Shown here piece after piece: positions 1-11,508 of a stretch of DNA of 11,508 nt. How positions within the stretch are numbered: position 1 is the first letter of the stretch; every line of letters begins with the position of its first letter. This stretch comes from a virus. Lineage: Duplodnaviria; Heunggongvirae; Uroviricota; Caudoviricetes. A program made the translations under genes and the position numbers. The notes beneath the pieces are model-generated. The model was not told the DNA's origin, made no database searches, and saw nothing but the letters and a program-made list of their open reading frames with translations. Where the stretch lies: IMG/VR virus record IMGVR_UViG_2681813225_000024, positions 1-11,508 of that record. One strand, written 5' to 3'.

Positions 1-603
1 TTTCACACCTTCCAGCATGGTTTCGGGTTTTACCCCCTCATTCAAACGGGCTTTCCAGGCTTTGAAGGCTGCAGATTTTGAATTGCCACCAGCACGTTTG
101 GGGTATGCCAGCCATGCCTGCTCAAACTCCGGAGAGTATTCCGGTCGGTTTGAACGAACTCGCACAGACTCATCAGCAGATGCACCAACAGCTATTGGTT
201 CATTGACTGGTTCAAAAGAGTGACTGGTTCTGGGTGAATCTCCTGCACTACCCCCTGGTGCAACTCCTGCACTACCTGGTGAATTTGCTGCACCAGATAG
301 TGAATTATTTGCACTACCCCCTAGTGAATCTCCTGCACCATCCAGATGAAGGAGATAGATATTACTTGAGTTACCTTTTTCACCTTTCCGGGTGACTTTT
401 TTTACCAGCCCGGAATCACAAAGGGCCGCAATATGATTCATCACAGAACGTTTGCTAATCTCGCACTGATCAGCAATATGCTGGTAGCTGGGCCAGCACT
501 CACCCTGATCGCTGGCATTATCAGCCAGCTTGATCAGAACCAGTTTTCGCAATGGATTACCCACTCGAATTTTCATCGCTTTAACCATCAGCTCCATACT
601 CAT
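1..603 (-). CDS. Phage replication initiation protein, N-terminal helix-turn-helix domain plus Gly/Ser/Ala-rich linker; 3' end lies beyond window start (partial)
   Basis: Manual minus-strand translation from ATG at 603..601 is open to position 1 (201 codons, no stop); it is absent from the ORF track because no stop lies in the window. Begins MSMELMVKAMKIRVGNPLRKLVLIKLADNASDQGECWPSYQHIADQCEISKRSVMNHIAALCDSGLVKK, which resembles the HTH domain found at the N-terminus of phage replication initiators. ATG overlaps the upstream gene stop as ATGA (coupling). It is the last gene of the PR-like operon. Confidence 0.7.
   Translation of the reverse strand, partial: MSMELMVKAMKIRVGNPLRKLVLIKLADNASDQGECWPSYQHIADQCEISKRSVMNHIAALCDSGLVKKVTRKGEKGNSSNIYLLHLDGAGDSLGGSANNSLSGAANSPGSAGVAPGGSAGDSPRTSHSFEPVNEPIAVGASADESVRVRSNRPEYSPEFEQAWLAYPKRAGGNSKSAAFKAWKARLNEGVKPETMLEGVK
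225..350. repeat. Imperfect tandem repeats (~21-24 bp units) inside the replication gene, encoding a low-complexity linker (GDSLGGSANNSLSGAANSPGSAGVAPGGSAGDSP)
   Basis: Plus strand shows reiterated units such as ggtgaatctcctgcactaccccct / ggtgcaactcctgcactacct / ggtgaatttgctgcacca / agtgaatctcctgcacca; the reading frame is maintained through them. Confidence 0.6.
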
Positions 604-836
604 GCTGCACCTCCGAGATGCTTCATGTTTTTTCCGGAGCGAAAGGTTATAAGCGGCATACTGACGCGGTAATTACGGCCCAGCGGTTCACAAATCACCT
701 TCTGACATTCACGGTCAACCAGGCTAACACGTAGAACATGCCCTGCAGGCGTGGTGTACCACTGCCCAACTGTAGGAATTGATGTTTTTTTACGCTGAAA
801 TAAACGGTAAATATTGAGGATCAACGGATTAAGCAT
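600..836 (-). CDS. Hypothetical small phage protein (78 aa)
   Basis: ORF track; ATG at 836..834; its stop overlaps the replication gene ATG (ATGA) and its start overlaps the upstream gene stop (ATGCTTAA), giving translational coupling within the operon. No recognisable motif. Confidence 0.45.
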   Translation of the reverse strand: MLNPLILNIYRLFQRKKTSIPTVGQWYTTPAGHVLRVSLVDRECQKVICEPLGRNYRVSMPLITFRSGKNMKHLGGAA

Positions 837-1473
837 GACGATGCCCTCCGCTGATATTCAGGAGACGGTGAATATGAAAATTAGCCTTATCCGCCAGACG
901 AATACGTTCAGCCTGCAAGTTAAGAAGGGTTTCTACCAGAACCTGATGCGCCTGCGGATCCGAAAGAGTTACCTTGCGCAGAGCACGTAGTGCAGTTGTT
1001 ACATAACTGAGTTTATGTAAGTCTTCATCATTCAGACGAGTGAGGGCTGGGACAGTAGCCATGATGGCAGCCTCCTTGATCGGTGAAATACTTCCACCAC
1101 CGGAAACGCCAATTTCGCTGGTGGTGAACTGAACGGGGTTGGCGTAACCGGTGATCAAGGAAACCGGCGCATCTTTCGATGCCCCCGCCCAGCCCACCAT
1201 AACTTTGATGTGAGCAAATGCGGACGATAAAAAAGACGCTGGCGCGTCATATATCGCCTTGATCAATTCCAGGACGCCAATCCCGGCACCCGCTTTATAA
1301 GGTGCCTGAACAGTGTAACGTCCCGGAATGGCAGAATCAATGTGCTGGTGGTCCTTCACACTCAACAAAATCACGCCTGAATTTCCACAAAGGACTAAAG
1401 CACTCATGCGGGTAGTCTTTGCGAAGATAGATAACGCGCTGTGTTTCTGGTTCCCAACGAATAACATGGACAT
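829..1473 (-). CDS. Hypothetical phage protein; start uncertain (ORF opens at TTG 1518; ATG at 1473 has RBS-like AAGAGGG just upstream)
   Basis: ORF track 829..1518, 229 aa. Sequence looks protein-like (ALVLCGNSGVILLSV, GVSGGGSISPIKEAAIMATVPALTRL). Its 5' part overlaps the upstream 109-aa ORF out of frame, so the start or the gene integrity is unresolved. Confidence 0.4.
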   Translation of the reverse strand: MSMLFVGNQKHSALSIFAKTTRMSALVLCGNSGVILLSVKDHQHIDSAIPGRYTVQAPYKAGAGIGVLELIKAIYDAPASFLSSAFAHIKVMVGWAGASKDAPVSLITGYANPVQFTTSEIGVSGGGSISPIKEAAIMATVPALTRLNDEDLHKLSYVTTALRALRKVTLSDPQAHQVLVETLLNLQAERIRLADKANFHIHRLLNISGGHRHA

Positions 1474-1666
1474 AAAGCCCTCTTCCGTCACGAAACCAGC
1501 GGTTAAGTTCCCGCACAACTCGCCCCCCCACAGTCAGGTAAAGTTCTCTGTGGTTACTTACAGCCAGGTGATTTGGTAATCTGCATTCATGCCGTAACAA
1601 CAGGTGTTCAGCGACACTGACCACCAGCTGTTGCGACAAACGGTTATTTGCCGTTAAACTGTTCAT
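1337..1666 (-). CDS. Hypothetical phage protein (109 aa)
   Basis: ORF track; ATG at 1666..1664 overlaps the stop of the upstream CII-like gene (ATGA); GGAG-containing RBS about 10 nt upstream. No recognised family. Confidence 0.45.
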   Translation of the reverse strand: MNSLTANNRLSQQLVVSVAEHLLLRHECRLPNHLAVSNHRELYLTVGGRVVRELNRWFRDGRGLYVHVIRWEPETQRVIYLRKDYPHECFSPLWKFRRDFVECEGPPAH

Positions 1667-2226
1667 GCGTTAGTTTCTCCACAGACACAAAACGCCACGA
1701 CGCCCGGAGCTGCACACTCGCGGGCGTCACTCTTTTCTGGAGCGCAAAAGATTTTGTAGACCAGTGCTGCATGCTCTTGGAGCTTCGAAATTGACAGATA
1801 CAACTCATCATTAATTGCTGTCTGCTCGTGTGGCTCCACGACCCCATCTTCGATTGCCGAACGAATCTGCTTTGAGTAATTCCCGATCTGTTCGATGACT
1901 TCCAGCAGGCGCTGGTTTATATCGGCGTTCTCTACTTCCTCAATTTCAGGAAGCGATACGAACACCCCACCAGCAGACTGTGCGACAGCATCCGCAATGT
2001 AGTGAGTGCCAGCCGCGCGCTGTAAAACCATTGCCCATCCCAGCGGGAAAATCTGATCGCCATCGGCACGAAGGCGGTTAAATAATGCGTTCTCTGTTAC
2101 ATCCAGCCAGTCAGCTGCTTCAGCGTAACCACCCGGCAACGCTGCGATAGTTTTTCTGACAGCTTTCACGTACCACTCAGGCTGTTTTTCTACTTTCCAG
2201 TGATACTTACCCACGGTTAGCCTCAT
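1663..2226 (-). CDS. Putative CII-like / YdaT-like early regulatory protein (about 183-187 aa)
   Basis: ORF track; sits immediately downstream of the Cro-like gene, the position CII holds in lambdoid phages and YdaT holds after YdaS. Alternative GTG start at 2214 has GAGG 6 nt upstream. The family call rests on synteny and weak recollection, not on a verified motif. Confidence 0.5.
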   Translation of the reverse strand: MRLTVGKYHWKVEKQPEWYVKAVRKTIAALPGGYAEAADWLDVTENALFNRLRADGDQIFPLGWAMVLQRAAGTHYIADAVAQSAGGVFVSLPEIEEVENADINQRLLEVIEQIGNYSKQIRSAIEDGVVEPHEQTAINDELYLSISKLQEHAALVYKIFCAPEKSDARECAAPGVVAFCVCGETNA

Positions 2227-2257
2227 CGTTCTGTGGTTAAAAATTGAAGGTGTTCTG

Positions 2258-2458
2258 TTAATCTTTCGGATAGATATCCGGTCTTAAGTCAGATTTCGTA
2301 ATTGCACCTGACGTGCATTGCTCAAGTTTTTTCGCCAGCACAAAACTGGCTTTTTTATAACCATTGAAAACCAGCCGTAAGTAGCCAGGTGTTGAGCCAA
2401 CTTTTCCGGCCAACTCGCCCTGCTGTTCTTTGGTTAAAGAGTCCCAATACGCTTTCAT
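2258..2458 (-). CDS. Cro-like HTH regulator (YdaS/Cro family), 66 aa from ATG 2458
   Basis: ORF track frame 2258..2563; internal ATG at 2458 gives MKAYWDSLTKEQQGELAGKVGSTPGYLRLVFNGYKKASFVLAKKLEQCTSGAITKSDLRPDIYPKD, a typical small Cro/YdaS-type HTH. AAGG RBS about 10 nt upstream. Divergent from the CI-like gene across an operator-bearing intergenic region. Confidence 0.65.
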   Translation of the reverse strand: MKAYWDSLTKEQQGELAGKVGSTPGYLRLVFNGYKKASFVLAKKLEQCTSGAITKSDLRPDIYPKD

Positions 2459-2464
2459 ACAATA

Positions 2465-2531
2465 TGTACCTTCAGTATACATATTACATGATTGAAATGA
2501 ACCTTCAAGATACTTGTACCTTATCGGTACA
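2465..2531. promoter_or_regulatory. OR-like operator cluster: three 17-bp sites fitting TGTAC-N7-GTACA, with divergent promoters for cro-like and cI-like genes
   Basis: Sites read directly: 2465-2481 TGTACCTTCAGTATACA; 2498-2514 TGAACCTTCAAGATACT; 2515-2531 TGTACCTTATCGGTACA (perfect palindromic half-sites). They lie between the cro-like start (2458, minus) and the cI-like start (2549, plus). Confidence 0.5.
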
Positions 2532-2548
2532 AAGGTTTTAATTTCGTT

Positions 2549-3223
2549 ATGAAAACAATCCATGACATCCGGCGGTCTAACGCCAGAAACCTGAGAGATG
2601 GTGTTGGCGGAAATTCATCCTTTGCCACCATGATTGATCGCGAGCCAACCCAGACCAGTAGGTTTATGGGGGATGGCGCTACTAAAAATATCGGTGACAG
2701 CATGGCACGGCACATCGAAAAATGTTTCGACCTGCCTGTCGGATGGCTTGATCAAGAACACCAGACAACGAACATCACAAAAAAACCTGATGTTTCAATC
2801 ACTAACAAACAAATAACGTTAGTCCCTGTCATATCATGGGTACAGGCCGGAGCATGGAAAGAAGTTGGCTATTCTGAGGTTGATTTGAGCACAGCAGAAA
2901 CGTATCCCTGCCCTGTCCCCTGTGGCGAAATGACTTATATCTTGCGGGTGATTGGTGATTCAATGATTGATGAGTACCGCCCTGGAGACATGATTTTTGT
3001 TGATCCCGAAGTCCCTGCCTGCCACGGTGACGACGTTATTGCATTGATGCACGATACAGGCGAAACCACCTTCAAGCGATTGATAGAAGATGGAACACAG
3101 CGTTATCTCAAAGCATTAAACCCAAACTGGCCTGAGCCTTACATTAAGATTAACGGTAATTGCTCTATAATTGGTACAGTGATTTTCTCGGGAAAACCAA
3201 GAAGATACACAATAAAGGTCTAA
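2549..3223 (+). CDS. CI/LexA-like prophage repressor (N-terminal HTH, C-terminal S24 peptidase autocleavage domain), 224 aa
   Basis: ORF track. C-terminal region has the S24 hallmarks: GDSM (Ser nucleophile) in RVIGDSMIDEYRPGDMIFVD and a downstream Lys in TTFKRL. The N-terminus is HTH-like. Weak RBS, as is common for cI genes. Confidence 0.85.
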   Translation: MKTIHDIRRSNARNLRDGVGGNSSFATMIDREPTQTSRFMGDGATKNIGDSMARHIEKCFDLPVGWLDQEHQTTNITKKPDVSITNKQITLVPVISWVQAGAWKEVGYSEVDLSTAETYPCPVPCGEMTYILRVIGDSMIDEYRPGDMIFVDPEVPACHGDDVIALMHDTGETTFKRLIEDGTQRYLKALNPNWPEPYIKINGNCSIIGTVIFSGKPRRYTIKV

Positions 3224-3235
3224 TCAATATTTATG

Positions 3236-3260
3236 AACCTGCTTCGGCAGGTTTTTTTAT
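3236..3260 (+). terminator. Rho-independent terminator downstream of the repressor gene
   Basis: Stem ACCTGC (3237-3242) / GCAGGT (3247-3252), loop TTCG, followed by a T7 run (3252-3258). Confidence 0.7.
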
Positions 3261-3262
3261 AC

Positions 3263-3291
3263 TTGACAATGTACTCATGAGATACATAACG
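3263..3291 (+). promoter_or_regulatory. PL-like early-left promoter with overlapping OL-like operator
   Basis: Perfect -35 TTGACA at 3263-3268; weak -10 candidate CATAAC about 16 bp downstream. The 17-bp site TGTACTCATGAGATACA (3270-3286) has the same TGTAC-N7-ATACA architecture as the OR sites. Confidence 0.4.
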
Positions 3292-3708
3292 TATCCAAAA
3301 GAAACATGGGGCAGGCAAGATTCAAACAAAATTTGGTTGTAACACGGCGTATGGCACATGCGTCGTTAGCGGTCTGGGGACGTTAAAGGGGACAATCCAC
3401 TCCTTGCTCGGGCAAACAAACCAGGTAGCCGGAATGTGCAAGTCAATGATGATGCTGATAAGACGCCTAACCAGCGTGGCGATCCGGTTTGACGCCTGGG
3501 AAGAGACCAGGGTGCAACGATGAGGGCATTTATGGAGCCGCGACAAAGTGTGGTGCCGTAACTGGCTAAGTGCTCTCAGCGTTGTGGTCATCCGCGAAAT
3601 GGCGCGGCGGTAAGTATGGCTGGGTTACTCTTTCCCCGTTGAGGACACCGGATTGTCAGGTTGACCATACGCCTGAGTGACAACCCCACCACAACAGCCA
3701 CTGCTTTG

Positions 3709-3755
3709 GCGGTACCAGTTTGTACACTTGCTTCCGGCTGGTACCGCTCTTTTTA
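3709..3755 (+). terminator. Terminator-like hairpin in the early-left leader
   Basis: 10-bp stem GCGGTACCAG (3709-3718) / CTGGTACCGC (3738-3747) followed by TCTTTTT. Confidence 0.4.
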
Positions 3756-3756
3756 C

Positions 3757-3845
3757 AAAACAGAGAAGAGCATCACCGGACGACGGGCTCATAACCCAAT
3801 CCATCCGGGCGGCTGCCACCGCAGGTGTTCTTCTCTGTTTTGTGG
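3757..3845 (+). terminator. Second long hairpin (13-bp perfect inverted repeat at base) immediately upstream of the first early gene RBS
   Basis: AAAACAGAGAAGA (3757-3769) is exactly complementary to TCTTCTCTGTTTT (3829-3841), enclosing a 59-nt GC-rich segment; ends in a U-run. Confidence 0.35.
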
Positions 3846-3891
3846 AGAAACCAACCGACCTTGCAGGGTCGATATGATGAGGAGCAGCAAA

Positions 3892-4254
3892 ATGGCTAGC
3901 GAACGCAGTACTGATGTGCAGGCATTTATCGGGGAGTTGGACGGCGGCGTATTTGAAACCAAAATCGGCGCTGTTCTCAGTGAAGTCGCTTCCGGTGTGA
4001 TGAACACGAAAACCAAAGGTAAGGTCTCACTCAACCTGGAAATCGAACCATTTGATGAGAACCGTGTGAAAATCAAACACAAACTCTCATATGTTCGCCC
4101 GACTAACCGCGGGAAAATTTCCGAAGAAGACACCACCGAAACGCCGATGTATGTCAATCGCGGTGGTCGCCTGACTATTCTGCAGGAAGACCAGGGACAA
4201 TTACTGACTCTTGCCGGTGAACCTGACGGAAAACTCCGCGCAGCAGGTCATTAA
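3892..4254 (+). CDS. yfdP: YfdP-like conserved prophage early protein (120 aa)
   Basis: ATG at 3892 preceded by GAGGAG with 7-nt spacing; lies in the ORF track frame 3661..4254. Length and position directly upstream of a YfdQ-like gene match the CPS-53 yfdPQRS order as I recall it. Symbol assigned by synteny, not verified. Confidence 0.5.
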   Translation: MASERSTDVQAFIGELDGGVFETKIGAVLSEVASGVMNTKTKGKVSLNLEIEPFDENRVKIKHKLSYVRPTNRGKISEEDTTETPMYVNRGGRLTILQEDQGQLLTLAGEPDGKLRAAGH

Positions 4255-4318
4255 TACGTTATTAATAAACTGATTATTTATCGCATCACTGAATATCTTT
4301 ATATAGTGAGGACTTATT

Positions 4319-5143
4319 ATGTCTCAGAACTTAGACGCAACCGCAATTAATCAAATCCATGCCCTTATTTCTGCTCAGGGTGTTAATGAAATTATCAGTA
4401 AGATTGGTGCCGATGCTGTGGCATTGCCTGAGAATTTCCGCATTCATGATCTGGAAAAATTTAATTTAAATCGTTTCCGTTTCCGTGGTGCGCTTTCCAC
4501 TGCCAGCATCGATGACTTTACCCGTTATTCTAAAGATCTTGCAGATGAAGGTACCCGCTGCTTTATCGATGCCGATAATATGCGTGCCGTCAGTGTGCTT
4601 AACCTGGGTACTATTGATGAGCCAGGTCACGCAGATAACACTGCCACTCTCAAACTGAAAAAGACAGCACCGTTCTCTGCTCTGTTATCTGTTAATGGCG
4701 AGCGTAACTCCCAGAAGTCACTGGCAGAATGGATTGAAGACTGGGCCGACTACCTTGTGGGCTTTGATGCTAATGGTGACGCTATTCAGGCAACAAAAGC
4801 GGCTGCGGCAGTCCGTAAAATCACGATTGAAGCAAACCAGACCGCTGATTTTGAAGATAATGACTTCAGCGGCAAACGCTCCCTGATGGAGTCTGTCGAA
4901 GCGAAGACCAAAGACATTATGCCAGTGGCATTTGAATTTAAATGCGTTCCGTTTGAAGGCCTTAAAGAACGTCCGTTTAAATTACGCCTCAGCATTATCA
5001 CTGGCGATCGTCCTGTACTGGTTCTGCGCATTATTCAGCTGGAAGCGGTGCAGGAAGAAATGGCTAACGAATTTCGTGATCTGCTTGTTGAGAAATTTAA
5101 AGACAGCAAAGTAGAAACCTTTATTGGTACTTTCACCGCCTGA
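4319..5143 (+). CDS. yfdQ: YfdQ-like protein (DUF2303 family), 274 aa
   Basis: ORF track; AGGA RBS about 9 nt upstream; size and sequence character consistent with E. coli CPS-53 YfdQ; followed by YfdR- and YfdS-like genes in the same order. Confidence 0.65.
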
Positions 5144-5155
5144 TTTCATTACTGC

Positions 5156-5177
5156 AAATGCCCCTGCGGGGGCATTT
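5156..5177 (+). terminator. Terminator-like hairpin after the yfdQ-like gene
   Basis: 9-bp stem AAATGCCCC (5156-5164) / GGGGCATTT (5169-5177), loop TGCG; the U-tract is short, so this may be an attenuator or RNA stability element. Confidence 0.35.
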
Positions 5178-5270
5178 ATGGAAACATAATTTACTCAATA
5201 ATCGCCAGATGGTGATGGCTTCCTTTTACCAGAATTCAGCGCGGTGCAGCGCATATACGTGGAGAACAAA

Positions 5271-5807
5271 ATGTCATTTATTAAAACTTTTTCCGGGAAG
5301 CATTTTTATTATGACAGGATAAATAAAGACGACATCGTGATTAACGATATCGCGGTTTCCCTTTCAAATATCTGTCGCTTTGCAGGACATCTTTCACACT
5401 TCTACAGCGTCGCCCAACATGCGGTGCTTTGCAGCCAGCTGGTACCGCAGGAATTTGCTTTTGAAGCGTTAATGCATGATGCAACAGAAGCATATTGCCA
5501 GGACATCCCCGCACCACTGAAACGCCTTCTTCCTGACTATAAACGGATGGAAGAAAAAATAGACGCCGTAATCCGTGAGAAATACGGGTTACCTCCTGTT
5601 ATGAGCACGCCAGTGAAATATGCCGATCTCATTATGCTGGCAACCGAACGCCGCGATCTCGGGCTTGATGATGGCTCTTTCTGGCCTGTACTGGAAGGTA
5701 TCCCGGCGACAGAGATGTTCAAAGTTATTCCACTGTCACCAGGCCATGCCTACGGGATGTTTATGGAACGTTTTAACGAGTTATCGGAGTTACGCAAATG
5801 CGCATGA
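5271..5807 (+). CDS. yfdR: HD-domain phosphohydrolase, YfdR-like 5'-deoxynucleotidase (178 aa)
   Basis: ATG at 5271 with GGAGA RBS 5 nt upstream (track ORF opens at GTG 5244). HD motif context in AQHAVLCSQL...ALMHDATEAYCQDIP. Size matches YfdR. Confidence 0.65.
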   Translation: MSFIKTFSGKHFYYDRINKDDIVINDIAVSLSNICRFAGHLSHFYSVAQHAVLCSQLVPQEFAFEALMHDATEAYCQDIPAPLKRLLPDYKRMEEKIDAVIREKYGLPPVMSTPVKYADLIMLATERRDLGLDDGSFWPVLEGIPATEMFKVIPLSPGHAYGMFMERFNELSELRKCA

Positions 5808-6160
5808 ATGTTTTCGAAATGGAAGGGTTTCTTCGCGGGAAATGTGTACCGCGAGATCTGAAAGTGAACGAAACAAATGCTGAGTACCTGGTACGTAAAT
5901 TCGATGCGCTTGAAGCTAAATGTACGGCACTGGAAAACAAAATAATACCAGTGTCAGCTGAACTGCCACCAGCAAATGAAAGTGTTCTGTTATTTGATGC
6001 TAACGGAGAAGGCTGGCTAATTGGCTGGCGTTCTCTCTGGTACACCTGGGGACAAAAAGAAACCGGAGAATGGCAGTGGACATTTCAGATCGGGGACCTT
6101 GAAAACGTCAATATCACTCACTGGGCAGTAATGCCGAAAGCACCGGAGAATAAGAAATGA
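5798..6160 (+). CDS. yfdS: YfdS-like protein (120 aa)
   Basis: ORF track; start overlaps the yfdR-like stop; GGAG 8 nt upstream; size and synteny match YfdS. Confidence 0.55.
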   Translation: MRMNVFEMEGFLRGKCVPRDLKVNETNAEYLVRKFDALEAKCTALENKIIPVSAELPPANESVLLFDANGEGWLIGWRSLWYTWGQKETGEWQWTFQIGDLENVNITHWAVMPKAPENKK

Positions 6161-6360
6161 GCGTGATAAAAACTCATACAGGAATTGTTATCACCCGAGA
6201 CGGTCCGCAGGTAAAAAAACTGCACCAGACAAAGCGGATGTGGGTCGTCGGAAAAAACGAGTTTTACCGCAAAGAAACCGGACGCCGCCACTTTGCAGAA
6301 AATACGCGCCGCCGACTGCTGATCGACAGCATCAAGCCTATCGAGGTGAAGCATGTTTAA
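6157..6360 (+). CDS. Hypothetical small basic protein (67 aa)
   Basis: ORF track; ATGA overlap with the preceding stop; GGAG 8 nt upstream. Confidence 0.45.
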   Translation: MSVIKTHTGIVITRDGPQVKKLHQTKRMWVVGKNEFYRKETGRRHFAENTRRRLLIDSIKPIEVKHV

Positions 6361-6592
6361 ACAGAACGAAAAATCTATCGCTCAAATTGCTGAGTATATC
6401 CCGCGTGCGTGCCGGGGTATGCAGTTGCAGGAAGCCAAAGCGCGCCTGGAGAAAAAAATTGCGCTCTATATCGATGACGGCTGTGATGCTGCCGTTCTTA
6501 ACGCAGCGTTCGCGCCAGCTCTTAACAGTCATACGCGGGAGTCTTTTTTTTCGCGCATCGCAGCGCAGATCCGTAAAGGAGGCAACCAGTGA
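6353..6592 (+). CDS. Hypothetical protein (79 aa)
   Basis: ORF track; start overlaps the previous stop; GAGG RBS upstream; protein-like composition. Confidence 0.45.
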   Translation: MFKQNEKSIAQIAEYIPRACRGMQLQEAKARLEKKIALYIDDGCDAAVLNAAFAPALNSHTRESFFSRIAAQIRKGGNQ

Positions 6593-7143
6593 GCGAGATT
6601 AACTATCAGGCTCTGCGACTGGCGGCAGAAAATGCAACACCAGGCGAATGGTGTGCTGATGACTACCATGGAGTAATTGCCGATGCCGGACTGAACGCCA
6701 ATTACTACATAGCATCATGCTCAGGACCAGATAATCGCGCCAATAAACGATTCATAGCCGCCGCCAATCCTGCCACCGTCTTGGCGCTGCTGGATGAGCT
6801 GGAAGCAGCAGAGAAGCGAAACGCTGAATTACAAAGCGAGAATGCATACATCCGCAACCGGTACAAAGAACTGGACCTATTAATCGGGAAAAATATTCTG
6901 GTCATGCAGGCTGCCATTATCGAATGGCAGGCAACTGGCGACGCTAAGAGCGGACTGGCATGGATTTATAACACACTGTTTGGCCCTGGCGAATTACCGG
7001 ACGAATCTGAGAAAGATGCTCAGGCCTACTTTAATCGCAAATATGCACCGATTGACGAAAAGCTTATGGCGCTTCACAAGTGGTTTTGGGAACAAAGTGA
7101 AGCCGAGCGCGCCGCCGCCAACATTGGTGTGAAGGGGAAGTGA
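6589..7143 (+). CDS. Ead/Ea22-like family protein (184 aa)
   Basis: ORF track; GTG start overlapping the upstream stop (GTGA) with AAAGGAGG 7 nt upstream. N-terminal LRLAAENATPGEW and a coiled-coil-like middle region are typical of Ea22-like early-left proteins. Confidence 0.6.
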   Translation: MSEINYQALRLAAENATPGEWCADDYHGVIADAGLNANYYIASCSGPDNRANKRFIAAANPATVLALLDELEAAEKRNAELQSENAYIRNRYKELDLLIGKNILVMQAAIIEWQATGDAKSGLAWIYNTLFGPGELPDESEKDAQAYFNRKYAPIDEKLMALHKWFWEQSEAERAAANIGVKGK

Positions 7144-7144
7144 G

Positions 7145-7336
7145 ATGAACGGACAAATCTCAATTGTTCGACCGGGAGCATGTGACGATTGCGAGATACG
7201 AATGATTATTCGTCTGGCGATGGGGAAAACAATAACTGCTCTCATTACTCCAGAAAATCTCGCATTAGCATTAACAGGAAAGTCAGACCTGCCAGTAGAG
7301 CTAAAGCTGCGAAATGTTGAGATTAAGGTGAAATAG
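7145..7336 (+). CDS. Hypothetical small protein (63 aa)
   Basis: ORF track; starts 1 nt after the upstream stop; purine-rich RBS. Confidence 0.4.
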   Translation: MNGQISIVRPGACDDCEIRMIIRLAMGKTITALITPENLALALTGKSDLPVELKLRNVEIKVK

Positions 7337-7338
7337 CT

Positions 7339-8346
7339 ATGACCACTATTACCAAAGAGCGACTGCTGACAATCAAGCAGTGGCGCGAAACATACGGACC
7401 TGGTAGCAACGTTGTACTGCCAGCAGAAGAAGCGGAAGAACTGGCACGGATTGCACTGGCATCATTGGAAGCAGATCCAGTTAAACGAGTTAACTCAGAT
7501 CAGATGCACCGAGTCTGCTTAGAAGCTAATCGCTATTTAGATAAATATGACGCGATGGCGAAAGAGGTAAATAAGTTGCTTGGACGCATCGCCCCGCCAG
7601 CGCCAGTATTTAACGGCGAATACGGTGACGCATATCAGGGCGCTCGTGAAGACCTGTCCATCTGGAAACGGCGAGCGCTTGAAGCTGATGAGCACGTTCG
7701 GCGACTGGAGCAAATCAATGACCACATGGTGAAAGAGGCGCAGGGAGAATCACGCATGGGCGAGCCTGTAATACGTGAGCCAGCACCGGTAGTGCCTGAA
7801 GAAGCAACTCCGGAAAACGTAGAAATGCTCTCTGGCTATGTTTCAACGTACAAATTAACCGATAGCGAGCGCGATATTGCTGCCGAAATATGGAACGCCT
7901 GCCGCGCCGCCATGCTTCAGGGTAGCCAACCTGTAAGCCAAACTTACAAGTTTCCAGTTAATACACCTTGCCAGGATGCGCCAGCCCATATCTGGCTGCA
8001 AACAGCTGGAGTATGGCCAGAAGATGGCGAGTTAAGCGAATTAACGTGGTGCAGCCACAATCAGCACCATGATGACACGCTATATGTTCGAGCTGACTTG
8101 GTAAATGGCAACTCTCCGGGAACTCCGGATAGTTGGATAAGCTGTAGTGATCAAATGCCTGAAAAGGGCCAGAACGTGCTTATTTCGGTGAATTTCGATA
8201 GCTCTCTGGTTGAACCGCTAATATGCTCCGCACGCTATACCGGAAGAACCTTTCGGCGCGGAGATGCAACGATTAAGCCGGGTAATGGTATTGAGCAAGC
8301 AACTCACTGGATGCCGCTACCGGAACCGCCGCAGGAGGTGAAGTGA
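7339..8346 (+). CDS. DUF551 domain-containing phage protein (335 aa)
   Basis: ORF track; C-terminal HWMPLPEPP is characteristic of DUF551 proteins in enterobacterial prophages; AAGGTGA RBS. Confidence 0.6.
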   Translation: MTTITKERLLTIKQWRETYGPGSNVVLPAEEAEELARIALASLEADPVKRVNSDQMHRVCLEANRYLDKYDAMAKEVNKLLGRIAPPAPVFNGEYGDAYQGAREDLSIWKRRALEADEHVRRLEQINDHMVKEAQGESRMGEPVIREPAPVVPEEATPENVEMLSGYVSTYKLTDSERDIAAEIWNACRAAMLQGSQPVSQTYKFPVNTPCQDAPAHIWLQTAGVWPEDGELSELTWCSHNQHHDDTLYVRADLVNGNSPGTPDSWISCSDQMPEKGQNVLISVNFDSSLVEPLICSARYTGRTFRRGDATIKPGNGIEQATHWMPLPEPPQEVK

Positions 8347-8918
8347 TGAACAACTTAATGATCGACCTTGAGACGATGGGGAAAAATAAGGATGCACCGA
8401 TCGTTTCCATTGGCGCGGTGTTCTTCACTCCAGAAACCGGAGACATCGGACAAGAATTCTATACGGTTGTTAGCCTGGAAAGTGCTATGGGGCAAGGAGC
8501 TACACCTGACGGCGATACCATCCTGTGGTGGTTGAAACAAAGCCCTGAAGCACGAGCTGCAATCTGTATTGATGATACTTTGTCGATCAGCGATGCTCTC
8601 TCAGAACTAAATCATTTCATTAACCGGCACGCAGCCAATACGAAATATTTAAAAGTCTGGGGTAACGGGGCCACCTTCGACAACGTAATTTTACGTGGAG
8701 CTTATGAGCGAGCAGGACAAATCTGCCCGTGGGCATACTGGAATGACCACGATGTACGCACGATCGTTACGCTTGGGCGTTCCATCGGATTCGACCCCAA
8801 AATGGACATGCCTTTCGATGGCGAACGGCACAACGCCCTGGCCGATGCCCGTCATCAGGCAAAATATGTTTCCGCTATCTGGCAGAAATTAATTCCTGCC
8901 ACCAGCACAGAATTATGA
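8346..8918 (+). CDS. DnaQ-like (DEDD) 3'-5' exonuclease, phage-type (190 aa)
   Basis: ORF track 8343..8918; ATG at 8346 overlaps the upstream stop, with GGAGGTGA RBS. N-terminal MIDLETMG matches exo motif I (D-x-E); later acidic and His residues fit the DEDDh pattern. Confidence 0.65.
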   Translation: MNNLMIDLETMGKNKDAPIVSIGAVFFTPETGDIGQEFYTVVSLESAMGQGATPDGDTILWWLKQSPEARAAICIDDTLSISDALSELNHFINRHAANTKYLKVWGNGATFDNVILRGAYERAGQICPWAYWNDHDVRTIVTLGRSIGFDPKMDMPFDGERHNALADARHQAKYVSAIWQKLIPATSTEL

Positions 8919-8954
8919 TTTTCCCGGGTGCAGCCGGTTTTGATGGAGAAAATT

Positions 8955-9236
8955 ATGAACACCTTGTTTTTACTGATGGCTGAATTCAATACCCCTAACA
9001 TTGAACTCTCAGCAGTTAGCCAAAAGTACTTTGGCATGAGTCCAGCCACGGCAGAAGCAAAAGCAAACGCTTGTAAGTTGCCCGTTCCAACATATCGCAT
9101 CGGCACATCACAAAAAGCAAAACGTTGCATCAATATTCAGGATCTTGCGGAATACATAGACAAAAGACGAGAAGAAGGACGTATCGAGTGGGAACAGGTC
9201 AGAACAAGCAAACAGAAGGGCAAAGAACATCACTAA
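8955..9236 (+). CDS. PrtN/AlpA-like small DNA-binding regulator, possibly excisionase-like (93 aa from ATG 8955)
   Basis: ORF track frame 8928..9236; ATG at 8955 with GGAG 7 nt upstream. MNTLFLLMAEF...PVPTYRIGTSQKAKRCINIQDLAEYIDKRREEG resembles pyocin-activator PrtN family proteins. Last gene before the bidirectional terminator. Confidence 0.55.
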   Translation: MNTLFLLMAEFNTPNIELSAVSQKYFGMSPATAEAKANACKLPVPTYRIGTSQKAKRCINIQDLAEYIDKRREEGRIEWEQVRTSKQKGKEHH

Positions 9237-9240
9237 AGAA

Positions 9241-9264
9241 AAAACCCGCCTAAAGGCGGGTTTT
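9241..9264. terminator. Bidirectional rho-independent terminator
   Basis: AAAACCCGCC-TAAA-GGCGGGTTTT; GC stem flanked by A-run and T-run, so it works on both strands. Ends the plus-strand early operon and the convergent minus-strand small ORF. Confidence 0.8.
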
Positions 9265-9283
9265 CAAAAAGCACCAGCTATGA

Positions 9284-9457
9284 TCATGCTGCTTTGCGAC
9301 GACGAAGCTTACCCTGCTGCTCTTTACCAGAGACAGTAGCGTGAGTGAACGCATTAGGAGCAGCCTTCATCAGAACTTCAACAGCAGCACCCATACCTGC
9401 GAATGCTTTCATTGTGTCGAACTTAACCTGTGGCTTGGTTGCTTTTTGATCTTTCAT
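9284..9457 (-). CDS. Small hypothetical protein, 57 aa (MKDQKATKPQVKFDTMKAFAGMGAAVEVLMKAAPNAFTHATVSGKEQQGKLRRRKAA)
   Basis: Not in the ORF track (under 60 aa); found by manual translation. ATG at 9457..9455 with GGGAG 6 nt upstream; stop TGA at 9286..9284 just before the bidirectional terminator. Lys-rich N-terminus, hydrophobic core, basic C-terminal tail. Confidence 0.5.
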   Translation of the reverse strand: MKDQKATKPQVKFDTMKAFAGMGAAVEVLMKAAPNAFTHATVSGKEQQGKLRRRKAA

Positions 9458-9653
9458 AGAAAACTCCCGAGACAGTAAAGGCGTCTCTAACCCTTTCTTT
9501 AAAGCTAGCTTGTTTCGCTAACTTATGCCAATCGATCATGTCGATTGGTGACATCGTTTCTTAGTAGTTTAAGCACAAAACGACTGCCATAGATGTACCT
9601 TTAAGGTAATCTGGACGGGTATCCTACAATTTGTAGACCCTTCTCGTCTATAC

Positions 9654-10190
9654 CTACTGAGCAAATTTAAGAAAGATATCCTGCAGCTCATCAATGACTG
9701 CCGACATCACATAACCGCACTGTTCCATGTGGAAACCAAAAGACTCGTAATACTGCACCAGTTCTGGTACTGGCTCTACAATGTGGACAACTTTACATTC
9801 AACAGCTTTACAAAATATAAAAGCACTCATAAGAGTGAGTAAAACCATGCGCCCTTTCAATGGGTGAGATTCATCTTCTCTAGAAAACCTTTCGATCATA
9901 TGGATACGAAAGATGTTTTCTTCAACCCCATAAACACAAATTGCTGCTCCTGATGGTATTCCCTGAACCCGACCTTGCTGAACAAGTTTTATACAGAACT
10001 CATACTTTTCTCTGGAGTTGCCATAGGTACTTAACGCATAGTCCCATTCAAGCTCACCATAGCCACCACACAGAATCTTGTAATCATCATCACTGAGCGG
10101 ACCAACAGCAAGAGGTAAGCCGACATGATCAATAATCAACTGGATATTGTTACGTACTGATTGACCTATCTCGTCCAGGGTAAGCATCAT
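9654..10190 (-). CDS. Hypothetical protein (178 aa) in AT-rich cargo; weak resemblance to a GNAT-like acyltransferase fold
   Basis: ORF track; tandem ATGs at 10190 and 10187 with GAGG upstream. Loose fit to a GNAT C-terminal pattern (IHMIERF...LKGRMVLLTLMSAFIFCKA...YYESFGF) but no clear Q/R-x-x-G-x-G/A acetyl-CoA motif. Visibly more AT-rich than the phage early genes. Confidence 0.5.
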   Translation of the reverse strand: MMLTLDEIGQSVRNNIQLIIDHVGLPLAVGPLSDDDYKILCGGYGELEWDYALSTYGNSREKYEFCIKLVQQGRVQGIPSGAAICVYGVEENIFRIHMIERFSREDESHPLKGRMVLLTLMSAFIFCKAVECKVVHIVEPVPELVQYYESFGFHMEQCGYVMSAVIDELQDIFLKFAQ

Positions 10191-10219
10191 GGCCTCTCAA
10201 GCGGAACACTAAAAGTCGC

Positions 10220-10225
10220 ATTATA
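10220..10225 (-). promoter_or_regulatory. Candidate -10 hexamer (TATAAT on minus strand) for the 178-aa gene
   Basis: Plus ATTATA at 10220-10225 is TATAAT on the minus strand, about 29 nt upstream of the ATG; no convincing -35. Confidence 0.3.
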
Positions 10226-10739
10226 TCTCATTCTTAAGCCGCGTATGGATTACACCTTGAAATGAAAACGCCGGGTTCCCAATAGGCTCCCACAGAGTGT
10301 ATAACTACTTGTTTTTCAAAAACGGTACATCCTATCGAGCATTGGTGCAACGCTAAACCGACCACTCCAGTGAACGTCAGTTTTTTCAGGCATTGCGCTG
10401 GTTTGGTTGATTTTTTGCATTTCAGAATTACCGTGCATTTTCAAATGTAGAGATTATTTTATCAATATATCATGGGGTTATGTTATTCAGCTTCACTGTT
10501 CAGGAGGCTCAATAGCGGGGTACTATACCATAACAACAGGAAGCGCCTGTCTCATTGCAAAAGAAAATTGAGATCCTCTCAAGGCATGAAGCTCTCACGA
10601 AGTGATGGAAATAATCTTATTAGCCGTTAACTTTGTTAAGGCCAATGATAAACAATCCAGGTTCGACGATAAATAAAAAATCACACATTAAACTCTGGTG
10701 ATATATCTCCCTGCTAATAGCATTGATAGAGAAAAAAGA

Positions 10740-10757
10740 ACCCAATAAATATTGGGT
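10740..10757 (-). terminator. Rho-independent terminator of the 235-aa gene
   Basis: Hairpin ACCCAAT-AAAT-ATTGGGT; on the minus strand it is followed by TCTTTTTTCTC, and it lies about 45 nt downstream of the stop at 10801-10803. Confidence 0.6.
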
Positions 10758-10800
10758 CCTTTTATATAATGCCTTCCATACTATCGAAGAACTTCACATA

Positions 10801-11508
10801 TTATTTCTCCGATTTAACCCCGAACAAATCATAAATTAATTTAGAAGTGTCTGTAAGTATTTTAATCTCTTCCTTTGAGGTTGGGTCAAACGACTTCGCG
10901 AAGCTAATTAATTGTGGTGCAGCATCTCGCATTTTGCTTAAAATATCAGGATCGAGCGTTCCTTCATTCACCAGATGTGACATCTTATCCAGATAGCCAT
11001 CAAAATTCATTTCTCCCCCATCAGCCAGACGCTTCATCTCTCCCAAGTACTTCTTCATATCACGTTGAGATAATTTTTCAAACTGAGCTTTCAGGTAGCT
11101 CTCATTATTTTCATTAATATACACTGTTTCTGATAAATCTGCGTAGGCACTAGAATATGAAAGTGAAATTAACAGCGAAGCAAATAATTTTAAGCTGTTG
11201 TCATCATGTTCCTGGCAGGCATTAACAAACGTTAAAAAACCAGAACCTATTGCTTGAAAATGTATATTCGCTAAAGGTTCATTATCCTTAGATTCCTCAT
11301 AAAATAGCTGAACCGTGGAGGGAAGGCCATTCTTAGTTTCTACATCAAAAGTACATTGTTCAATGGGAGTCGCATCTTTATTATCCCCAGGATTACATAT
11401 ACTATTAATCGCGAAATGAAAAATAGCCCGGTCAACAACTGATGCAATAAAGTCACGATCGTTTAAATCCTCATCAGTGCAATCGTCAATATACTTATTG
11501 ACCCACAT
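10801..11508 (-). CDS. Hypothetical acidic protein (at least 235 aa), AT-rich, unknown function; 5' end may extend beyond the window
   Basis: ORF track; the first in-window ATG sits exactly at the window edge (11508..11506), so the true start is uncertain. Long uninterrupted frame with coherent protein-like composition despite low GC; own terminator downstream. Confidence 0.5.
   Translation of the reverse strand: MWVNKYIDDCTDEDLNDRDFIASVVDRAIFHFAINSICNPGDNKDATPIEQCTFDVETKNGLPSTVQLFYEESKDNEPLANIHFQAIGSGFLTFVNACQEHDDNSLKLFASLLISLSYSSAYADLSETVYINENNESYLKAQFEKLSQRDMKKYLGEMKRLADGGEMNFDGYLDKMSHLVNEGTLDPDILSKMRDAAPQLISFAKSFDPTSKEEIKILTDTSKLIYDLFGVKSEK

Follow-up and report, generated by a model that had tools for sequence, protein, structure and literature searches.

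Prophages and genomic islands with a dusA-specific integrase are an element class described by Farrugia et al. 2015 (PMC4482086). Members of this class insert within the 5′ end of dusA and bring in a diverged replacement for that end, so that an intact dusA is present at the other junction. They are bordered by direct repeats that are imperfect (attL and attR), and a tyrosine integrase gene is adjacent to the dusA junction. In this study, we analyzed a stretch of 11,508 nucleotides (nt) of viral DNA (IMG/VR record IMGVR_UViG_2681813225_000024, positions 1 to 11,508), which is called the window below, and focused on its last part, positions 9265-11508. We regard it as practically certain that an mEp460-like lambdoid prophage has inserted in the 5′ end of Escherichia coli dusA and that this interval spans its right end and the host chromosome that follows. 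The only phage cargo in the interval is a two-gene cassette on the minus strand, in the order GNAT-fold gene, spacer, gene for a protein of 57 amino acids, and terminator. Overall, we think it rather probable that the interval is a prophage-host junction carrying a toxin-antitoxin-like conflict cassette that is expressed in the lysogen.

Prophage-host junction in dusA

The interval was searched by megablast against 5426 complete E. coli genomes. The whole of 9200-11508 was found in only 332 of these genomes, and a partial match was found in 4378. The identity between phage mEp460 (NC_019716) and the window was 98.4% over 8101-10441 and, by megablast, 97.7% over 9200-10441. This similarity stops at 10441, and nothing in mEp460 matched beyond this position. 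E. coli K-12 MG1655, which is without the prophage, matches 10335-11508 at 99.2% identity: its homology begins at 10335 and takes in the 104 nt at the start of dusA, the yjbM-dusA intergenic region and yjbM. The features of the junction are as follows.

10191-10334, no strand: P arm of the phage attachment site (attP), conserved in mEp460, SKA5 and Lys8385Vzw
10335-10342, no strand: crossover core of the attachment site (att), TCGAGCAT, from a three-way alignment of the window, mEp460 attP and the bacterial site (attB) of K-12
10335-10438, minus strand: 5′ remnant of native dusA, its first 104 nt, 100% identical to K-12
10439-10800, minus strand: host yjbM-dusA intergenic region with the native dusA upstream and promoter region, 99.2% identical to K-12
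10734-10763, minus strand: yjbM terminator, from a terminator scan
10801-11508, minus strand: host gene yjbM (DUF2713, 235 amino acids), matched by PF10897 with E 1e-165 over residues 1-235 of 235

On the left of the core the window is of the phage type. The first host-specific single-nucleotide polymorphism (SNP) is at 10343, and on the right of the core the window has the host-type variant wherever the phage's own dusA-like copy differs. The dusA remnant is fused to phage DNA, which gives a truncated open reading frame (ORF) of 41 amino acids with its stop at 10316. The genome of 2014C-3011 (NZ_CP027591.1) is 100% identical to the window, and its annotation places a partial gene for tRNA-dihydrouridine synthase (dusA) at window 10334-10438. 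The dusA-like copy in mEp460 attP is 83.7% identical to the native 104 nt. At the reciprocal junction of the same bacterial genome, there is a full-length dusA with a phage-type 5′ end (93% identical to the mEp460 copy and 83% to K-12), and the phage P′ arm lies upstream of it.

These features were compared with those of the dusA-integrase elements. The insertion lies within the 5′ end of dusA (the native 104 nt, then phage DNA), a diverged replacement 5′ end leaves dusA intact at the other junction, and imperfect direct repeats flank the element. Adjacency of a tyrosine integrase is given through mEp460 int, by position rather than by integrase phylogeny; this gene is 86 nt from the attP homology in mEp460, and int falls outside the window. 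Gene order in the free mEp460 genome is xis (PrtN-type), gp24 (57 amino acids), gp23 (178 amino acids), attP and int, and the prophage of the window has the same order. Nothing essential differs from the described class, of which this prophage is an ordinary member.

Two repeats, GGGAGCC (10285-10291) and GGGAACC (10274-10280), are present on the minus strand of the P arm. These repeats may be arm-type binding sites of Int, and we list them as candidates. GGGAACC/GGGAGCC also occurs three times in the mEp460 P′ arm beside int (mEp460 locus 7243-7330) and is conserved in SKA5 and Lys8385Vzw. In the attP region of Lys8385Vzw (locus about 4050-4070), the core TCGAGCAT is tandemly duplicated (TCGAGCATTCGAGCAT).

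In the genome of 2014C-3011, only a 5′ remnant of int is next to dusA. We looked for the other junction at the expected distance in this genome and found it rearranged instead: the full-length dusA (locus 17915-18952 within NZ_CP027591.1 4566000-4590000) is about 40 kb away and inverted, and it adjoins a truncated pspG, insertion sequence elements and pieces of a Mu-like prophage. The prophage copy in 2014C-3011 is probably defective, judging from this arrangement.

The host side begins with the dusA remnant. The position of yjbM corresponds to K-12 b4048 with zur, yjbJ, dinF and lexA as neighbours, which are also to its right in 2014C-3011, and the window ends exactly at the yjbM start codon. 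yjbM is a host chromosomal gene outside the prophage. It has the look of AT-rich DNA that was acquired long ago, or of a split pseudogene. In RefSeq, yjbL and yjbM of 2014C-3011 are annotated as a single frameshifted DUF2713 gene (986 nt). In NZ_CP069996.1 (locus 3677-4721), which has the Panacea allele described below, neither the dusA remnant nor yjbLM is present, and zur directly adjoins the Panacea gene; this arrangement is a deletion running from the att site into host DNA.

An earlier note on this DNA had described the whole of 9265-11508 as one AT-rich island of prophage cargo with three accessory genes, the gene for the 235-amino-acid protein among them. This account is now extremely improbable, and for the 235-amino-acid ORF it is already refuted. 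It agrees with the low G+C content of the whole stretch, with the minus-strand orientation of all three ORFs and with the match of phrog_29005 to the 235-amino-acid protein, a match that probably arises since some prophage-derived records overrun their borders. In contrast, prophage-free K-12 possesses 10335-11508 at 99.2% identity with yjbM beside zur, yjbJ, dinF and lexA, the similarity to mEp460 ends at 10441 with host-type SNPs from 10343 onward, and a partial dusA is annotated between the 178- and 235-amino-acid ORFs. The interval is not one cargo module, and the prophage-host junction within it had been missed.

Several parts of that description stand. The three minus-strand ORFs (9284-9457, 57 amino acids; 9654-10190, 178 amino acids; 10801-11508, 235 amino acids) are real in the ORF listing. 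The statement that none of them matches a family holds for the 57- and 178-amino-acid proteins, which are without a known family, but fails for the 235-amino-acid ORF, which is DUF2713 by the PF10897 match given above. Similarly, the idea of accessory or moron cargo fits the 57- and 178-amino-acid genes, which lie in the xis-attP slot, are swapped among syntenic dusA prophages and elsewhere occupy other moron or defence slots. It does not fit the 235-amino-acid ORF: this ORF and most of the AT-rich DNA, which had been taken as prophage cargo, are host chromosome. The supposed large AT-rich spacer between the 178- and 235-amino-acid ORFs is a series of separate elements, in which the attP arm and the att core are followed by the dusA remnant, the host region upstream of dusA and the yjbM terminator.

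As for composition, the G+C content is 39.8% over 9265-11508 and 47.9% over the plus-strand operon at 2549-9236. The sequence is AT-rich after the terminator, as the note had stated, but the drop is stepwise and not abrupt at 9265. The phage DNA at 9265-10333 has 42.8% G+C, which is the 0.4th percentile of equal-sized upstream windows (minimum 42.7%), and the 57-amino-acid gene has 47.7%. The value for 10342-11508 is 37.0%, lower than every equal-sized upstream window: the host yjbM-dusA intergenic region has 35.6%, and yjbM has 36.7% with 33% at third codon positions. Several of the checks proposed in the note were run. Comparison of the G+C content of 9265-11508 with that of 2549-9236 gave a phage cargo that is only mildly low, with the strongest AT-richness in host DNA. 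Profile searches assigned the 235-amino-acid protein to DUF2713 and the 178-amino-acid protein to no known family, the GNAT fold of the latter coming from structure prediction only. When presence and absence were compared among syntenic prophages, related dusA prophages carried a Panacea pair instead of the GNAT-fold gene. The main value of the analysis is corrective: where AT-rich DNA follows a phage operon, it may be no more than the host flank of an att junction, and the largest "unassigned" ORF here is the host gene yjbM.

The two-gene cassette and its proteins

The phage DNA between the plus-strand operon and the attP arm contains the following features.

9240-9265, no strand: hairpin terminator with the stem CCCGCC (9255-9260) / GGCGGG (9245-9250), called by the terminator scan on the minus strand only
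9284-9457, minus strand: gene for the 57-amino-acid basic protein, second in the cassette, homologue of mEp460 gp24 (phrog_2741), from ORF and homology
9458-9653, minus strand: spacer or leader of the 57-amino-acid gene, 196 nt, between the two cassette genes
9654-10187, minus strand: gene for an acidic GNAT-fold protein of 177 amino acids, first in the cassette, homologue of mEp460 gp23 (phrog_4350), from the ORF and the starts of homologues

The GNAT-fold ORF probably starts at its second ATG (10187), giving 177 amino acids, because homologues begin with MLTLDE; the alternative ATG is at 10190. A structural model of the protein was built with AlphaFold on a 20-sequence alignment. The model has GNAT topology, with a predicted local distance difference test score (pLDDT) of 88.5 and a predicted template modelling score of 0.86. 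A Foldseek search gave 384 PDB matches at E ≤ 1e-3, and the best 50 of the 384 were all GNAT or related acyltransferases. AtaT, TacT3, TacT2, KacT, SpeG, and aminoglycoside and other small-molecule GNATs are included among the structural matches. By its predicted fold only, the protein is a member of the GNAT superfamily. Acetyltransferase profiles (Pfam Acetyltransf_* and NCBIfam) matched none of 20 family members at E ≤ 1 and none of 10 distant relatives, taken from a search of 1.84 billion proteins, at E ≤ 0.01. A sequence-profile search of the PDB gave no GNAT and only spurious coiled-coil and armadillo matches. For both cassette proteins, Pfam, NCBIfam and PADLOC gave no match, and the PHROGs matches were only to families of unknown function. 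Homologues of the GNAT-fold protein (about 40-99% identity) occur across Enterobacterales and Shewanella, and the search of 1.84 billion proteins gave only a small family, with 89 representatives at E ≤ 1e-3.

The invariant residues of the family include H97 and E100 on β4, the loop H109-P-L-x-G113 before α3, and Y148 in α4. In the model, these are plausible catalytic or cofactor-loop positions. The pre-α3 loop reads H109-P-L-K-G113-R-M, in which only the central Gly fits the Q/R-x-x-G-x-G/A consensus. The family is acidic: the isoelectric point (pI) is 4.3-4.8 in 19 of the 20 aligned members and 5.5 in a truncated one of 162 amino acids, and the net charge is about -11. Compared with the protein N-terminal acetyltransferases NatD/Naa40, Ard1/Naa10 and RimI, the identity is only 10-14%, and the GNAT-fold protein has a 13-residue insertion between β4 and α3.

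The family of the 57-amino-acid protein is basic (pI 9.7-10.8). Its small proteins are homologous down to 28-34% identity and share a conserved L-x-K-A-A-P motif. In 13 of 14 homologues, the C-terminus is of the form ...R/K-x-A-A and thus ends in AA. The AlphaFold2 model of the 57-amino-acid protein (pLDDT 61) has one central helix at residues 15-37 with disordered tails. We also considered a ribbon-helix-helix (RHH) or helix-turn-helix (HTH) antitoxin fold; the low-confidence model shows a single helix with no β-strand or HTH. ClpX recognition signals, as reportedly described by Flynn et al. in 2003, include ssrA-like ...LAA ends and MuA-like basic tails. The ...RRRKAA tail of the 57-amino-acid protein resembles such C-terminal degrons and, by this analogy, looks like a degradation tag.

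The hairpin behind the 57-amino-acid gene had been read in the earlier note as a bidirectional terminator that belongs to the early-left operon. A G+C-rich hairpin is indeed present right after the plus-strand operon, but the terminator scan calls it on the minus strand only. On that strand the hairpin is followed by TTTTTTCTTT, with a T-run at 9239-9244, and on the plus strand by just TTTT. From these sequences, it is predicted to terminate the cassette transcript on the minus strand strongly and the xis operon on the plus strand more weakly. Its ownership also has to be revised. The terminator is conserved together with the 57-amino-acid gene in Citrobacter phages, with which it moves to a different phage position, and the cassette owns it at least equally.

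The 196-nt spacer has a stable predicted fold (minimum free energy -57.1 kcal/mol; z -3.42; 0 of 200 shuffles as good). Hairpins are predicted at 9528-9548 (CCAATCGA...TCGATTGG) and 9502-9524, and both are kept in the E. coli, Salmonella, Citrobacter and Enterobacter sequences (four compared), with G-U or compensatory changes. This structured spacer could act as a leader with a regulatory role, as an operator palindrome or as a site of processing. An Rfam search of 9000-11508 gave no match above threshold, and every weaker match had one of the two terminator hairpins at its centre. Shine-Dalgarno sequences are present for the 57-amino-acid gene (GGGAG, 9464-9468) and for the GNAT-fold gene (GAGAGG, 10193-10198). 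A perfect TATAAT is located at 10220-10225 on the minus strand, 30 nt upstream of the GNAT-fold start; the promoter scan did not call this site because its -35 element is poor.

Distribution and exchange of the cassette

Among the 5426 E. coli genomes, the 57-amino-acid gene was found in 562, the GNAT-fold gene in 358 and the whole block 9237-10333 in 357. The cassette occurs in some 6.6% of complete E. coli genomes, many O157:H7 and O111 strains among them, and it is also present in many Salmonella and Enterobacter assemblies. About 200 E. coli genomes possess only the 57-amino-acid gene. In these, homology breaks at about 9467-9470, that is, at the ribosome-binding site of the 57-amino-acid gene. 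The same xis-attP slot of dusA prophages is occupied by an alternative allele, which consists of a Panacea-domain protein (190 amino acids; PF13274, E 2e-19) followed by a protein of 128 or 139 amino acids. About 200 dusA prophages of E. coli carry this pair, with the same 57-amino-acid gene and terminator downstream of it. Panacea (PanA) antitoxin-toxin pairs have been described (PMC8832971). The Panacea pair shares its slot with the GNAT-fold gene of the cassette, but the proteins are unrelated; it is an alternative allele and not a homologue. The break in homology and the allelic Panacea pair together make the xis-attP slot a site of cargo exchange. The two genes of the Panacea pair (loci 2798-3786 and 3261-4249) have an overlap of 4 bp in SKA5 and Lys8385Vzw; in the annotation of the RefSeq genome, 29 nt separate them. 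Their second product, the protein of 128 or 139 amino acids, is without a family and has only a weak ICMT-like match. Presumably, this protein is an uncharacterised PanA-associated toxin.

Beyond E. coli, the GNAT-fold gene and the small gene were found together in the following contexts.

Shewanella: prophage end
Photorhabdus: within a tail gene cluster
Citrobacter and Enterobacter: after antiterminator Q, before methylase and lysis genes
Edwardsiella P2-like prophage: between gpA and the portal gene gpQ
Brenneria: 40 bp after a cI-like repressor gene
Salmonella: dusA prophages
Enterobacteriaceae chromosome: a two-gene islet outside phages, with the small ORF uncalled in the annotation

In every context examined, the small-gene homologue lies 77-264 nt downstream of the GNAT-fold gene on the same strand. 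A GNAT-fold gene lacking the small gene was never encountered (in 357 of 358 E. coli genomes and every other context), but the small gene is commonly found without the GNAT-fold gene. The position between gpA and gpQ in P2 is the old/tin defence hotspot (PMC9122126).

The pair has several marks of a moron. It is present or absent among syntenic phages and takes differing positions in different phages, it has its own terminator, and its G+C content (41.6-42.8%) is below that of the operon (47.9%). The candidate promoters are the TATAAT with its poor -35 element and the upstream host dusA promoter region. On these comparisons, we consider it very likely that the two genes are a mobile accessory pair. 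The cassette can be compared with the λ rexAB and P2 old/tin morons. It uses the same slots (after a cI-like repressor gene, and between gpA and the portal gene of a P2-like prophage), and like them it has its own terminator, a G+C content below that of its neighbours, and presence or absence among related phages. In contrast, its proteins have no sequence or fold relation to Rex, Old and Tin, and its role in exclusion is putative.

Proposed function and alternative explanations

In the lysogen, the cassette would lie directly behind the native dusA promoter and the 41-codon remnant, in the same orientation as these. The terminator scan found no terminator-like site between the dusA start and the GNAT-fold gene. 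Because no terminator is predicted between the dusA promoter and the cassette, the cassette is probably transcribed in the prophage state, from the dusA promoter and/or the weak phage promoter with the perfect TATAAT. In the free phage, the position upstream of the cassette is held by the phage surrogate of the dusA 5′ end and its upstream sequence. We propose that the GNAT-fold protein probably acetylates a basic target using acetyl-CoA and that the small basic protein, which is mostly disordered by itself in its model, is probably a labile protein that partners or neutralises it directly. Rather than serving phage propagation, the pair would then be a conflict module for phage exclusion, for abortive infection or for addiction. 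This conflict-module reading was chosen because the pair occupies moron and defence slots, a Panacea pair is its allelic alternative, the charges of the one protein complement those of the other (pI 4.3-4.8 in 19 of 20 GNAT-fold proteins and 9.7-10.8 in the small proteins), and the GNAT-fold gene is never found without the small gene. A toxin-antitoxin-like or defence role of the GNAT-fold and 57-amino-acid proteins may be suggested from these sequence features, but we hold it tentatively.

In its complete form, the proposal would be an undescribed two-component conflict system in temperate phages of Enterobacterales and Shewanella. An acidic, highly divergent GNAT effector would be restrained by a small basic protein whose tail is sensitive to protease, or would work by acetylating this protein. 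Once a phage infects or the element is lost, the enzyme would be freed, an essential basic target would be acetylated, and the competing phage would be blocked or the cell killed; integration into dusA would put the cassette under a host promoter. As a whole, this scheme is doubtful and is offered as a speculation.

Several observations weigh against a conflict cassette expressed in the lysogen. The acetyl-CoA loop is non-canonical (P-L-K-G-R-M) and no acetyltransferase hidden Markov model (HMM) matches; therefore, catalysis is not assured, and, on the model, we judge it only fairly probable that the protein is a catalytically active acetyltransferase. PADLOC-DB v2 gave 0 matches at E ≤ 1 for all three proteins of the interval. 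A literature search on the protein accessions gave nothing relevant, and for GNAT-based anti-phage systems in prophages nothing relevant was found in the literature. Promoter predictions are at chance level (7 sites, 6.9 expected). The prophage of 2014C-3011, the genome with 100% identity to the window, is rearranged and has a truncated integrase. The arrangement of the cassette, with the enzyme gene first, a spacer of 77-264 nt and a partner without RHH/DUF1778, is unlike that of known GNAT toxin-antitoxin pairs. The 57-amino-acid gene persists downstream of the Panacea pair without a GNAT-fold gene, and it may act independently. Finally, the strict pairing could reflect linkage only.

As an alternative, the two proteins may be an enzyme and its substrate, or a modifier of the host. 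The GNAT-fold protein would then be a protein N-terminal or lysine acetyltransferase, and the outcome would be lysogenic conversion of host physiology and not a toxin-antitoxin-like switch. Its substrate would be the 57-amino-acid protein, or a basic host protein (ribosomal or nucleoid) for which the small protein serves as an adaptor. We consider this explanation unlikely.

The GNAT-fold protein might instead be a canonical tRNA-acetylating toxin of the TacT, AtaT and KacT class, with the 57-amino-acid protein as a type II antitoxin. Its size is similar to that of these toxins (about 175 amino acids), AtaT, TacT3, TacT2 and KacT are among its structural matches, a small partner gene is always present, and a Panacea toxin-antitoxin pair is the allelic alternative. 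The cassette also has the general outline of the known GNAT/RHH systems (TacAT, AtaRT, KacAT and ItaRT). However, these systems have an RHH/DUF1778 antitoxin gene immediately upstream in a tight, overlapping bicistron. In the cassette, the gene order is reversed, a spacer of 77-264 nt separates the genes, and the partner is not RHH/DUF1778 but a 57-amino-acid helix with disordered basic tails and no predicted DNA-binding fold. Known GNAT tRNA-acetylating toxins use a basic groove, and the acidic family found here (net charge about -11) suits tRNA binding poorly. No acetyltransferase HMM match was obtained that would favour such a toxin. Taken together, this assignment is quite improbable.

A role in counter-defence or resistance is equally hard to credit. 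Here, the enzyme would acetylate a host immune protein, or would detoxify a polyamine, an aminoglycoside or a peptide-nucleotide antibiotic, and the 57-amino-acid gene would be unrelated. The anti-CRISPR protein AcrVA5 inactivates an immune protein by acetylation, phages carry GNATs, the structural matches include SpeG and GNATs that act on aminoglycosides and other small molecules, and an acidic enzyme suggests cationic substrates. In contrast, the slots of the cassette (after cI, at an att site below a host promoter, and in the P2 old/tin hotspot) are typical of lysogen-expressed genes and not of early anti-defence genes, and the strict pairing with the 57-amino-acid gene is left unexplained. 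Simple linkage of two independent genes is a further rival to the conflict-module proposal. Finally, the idea that these are core accessory genes of integration and excision (recombination directionality or att-site factors) takes up their position immediately beside the attP arm and xis and can be dismissed almost entirely: the GNAT-fold gene is missing from related dusA phages that share xis, attP and int, and other phages have the pair at a great distance from any att site, with one further case outside phages.

The cassette is a compact, widespread and uncharacterised moron of a GNAT and a small protein, and thus a reasonable candidate for experiment. Its GNAT-fold family is recognised by no sequence profile and moves as a unit with its partner between slots known for phage-exclusion genes. 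Should the cassette serve defence or addiction, an effector based on an acetyltransferase, with a small partner of a new kind, would join the known repertoire. If the proposal is true, the cassette would also show how integration can connect a moron to a host promoter.

It should be mentioned that an ArcA-modulated small RNA (sRNA) of 193 nt, sRNA-17, has been described in an mEp460-like prophage of E. coli K1 RS218 (PMC7719688). We considered whether the 196-nt spacer is this sRNA, and this was ruled out: the sRNA-17 sequence maps to window 3708-3747. This segment, on the minus strand between the cI-like repressor gene and yfdP-like genes, is an exact 40-nt match to the 5′ part of sRNA-17. 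In the supplement of PMC7719688, 2014C-3011 is among the carriers of a "degenerative" sRNA-17 copy.

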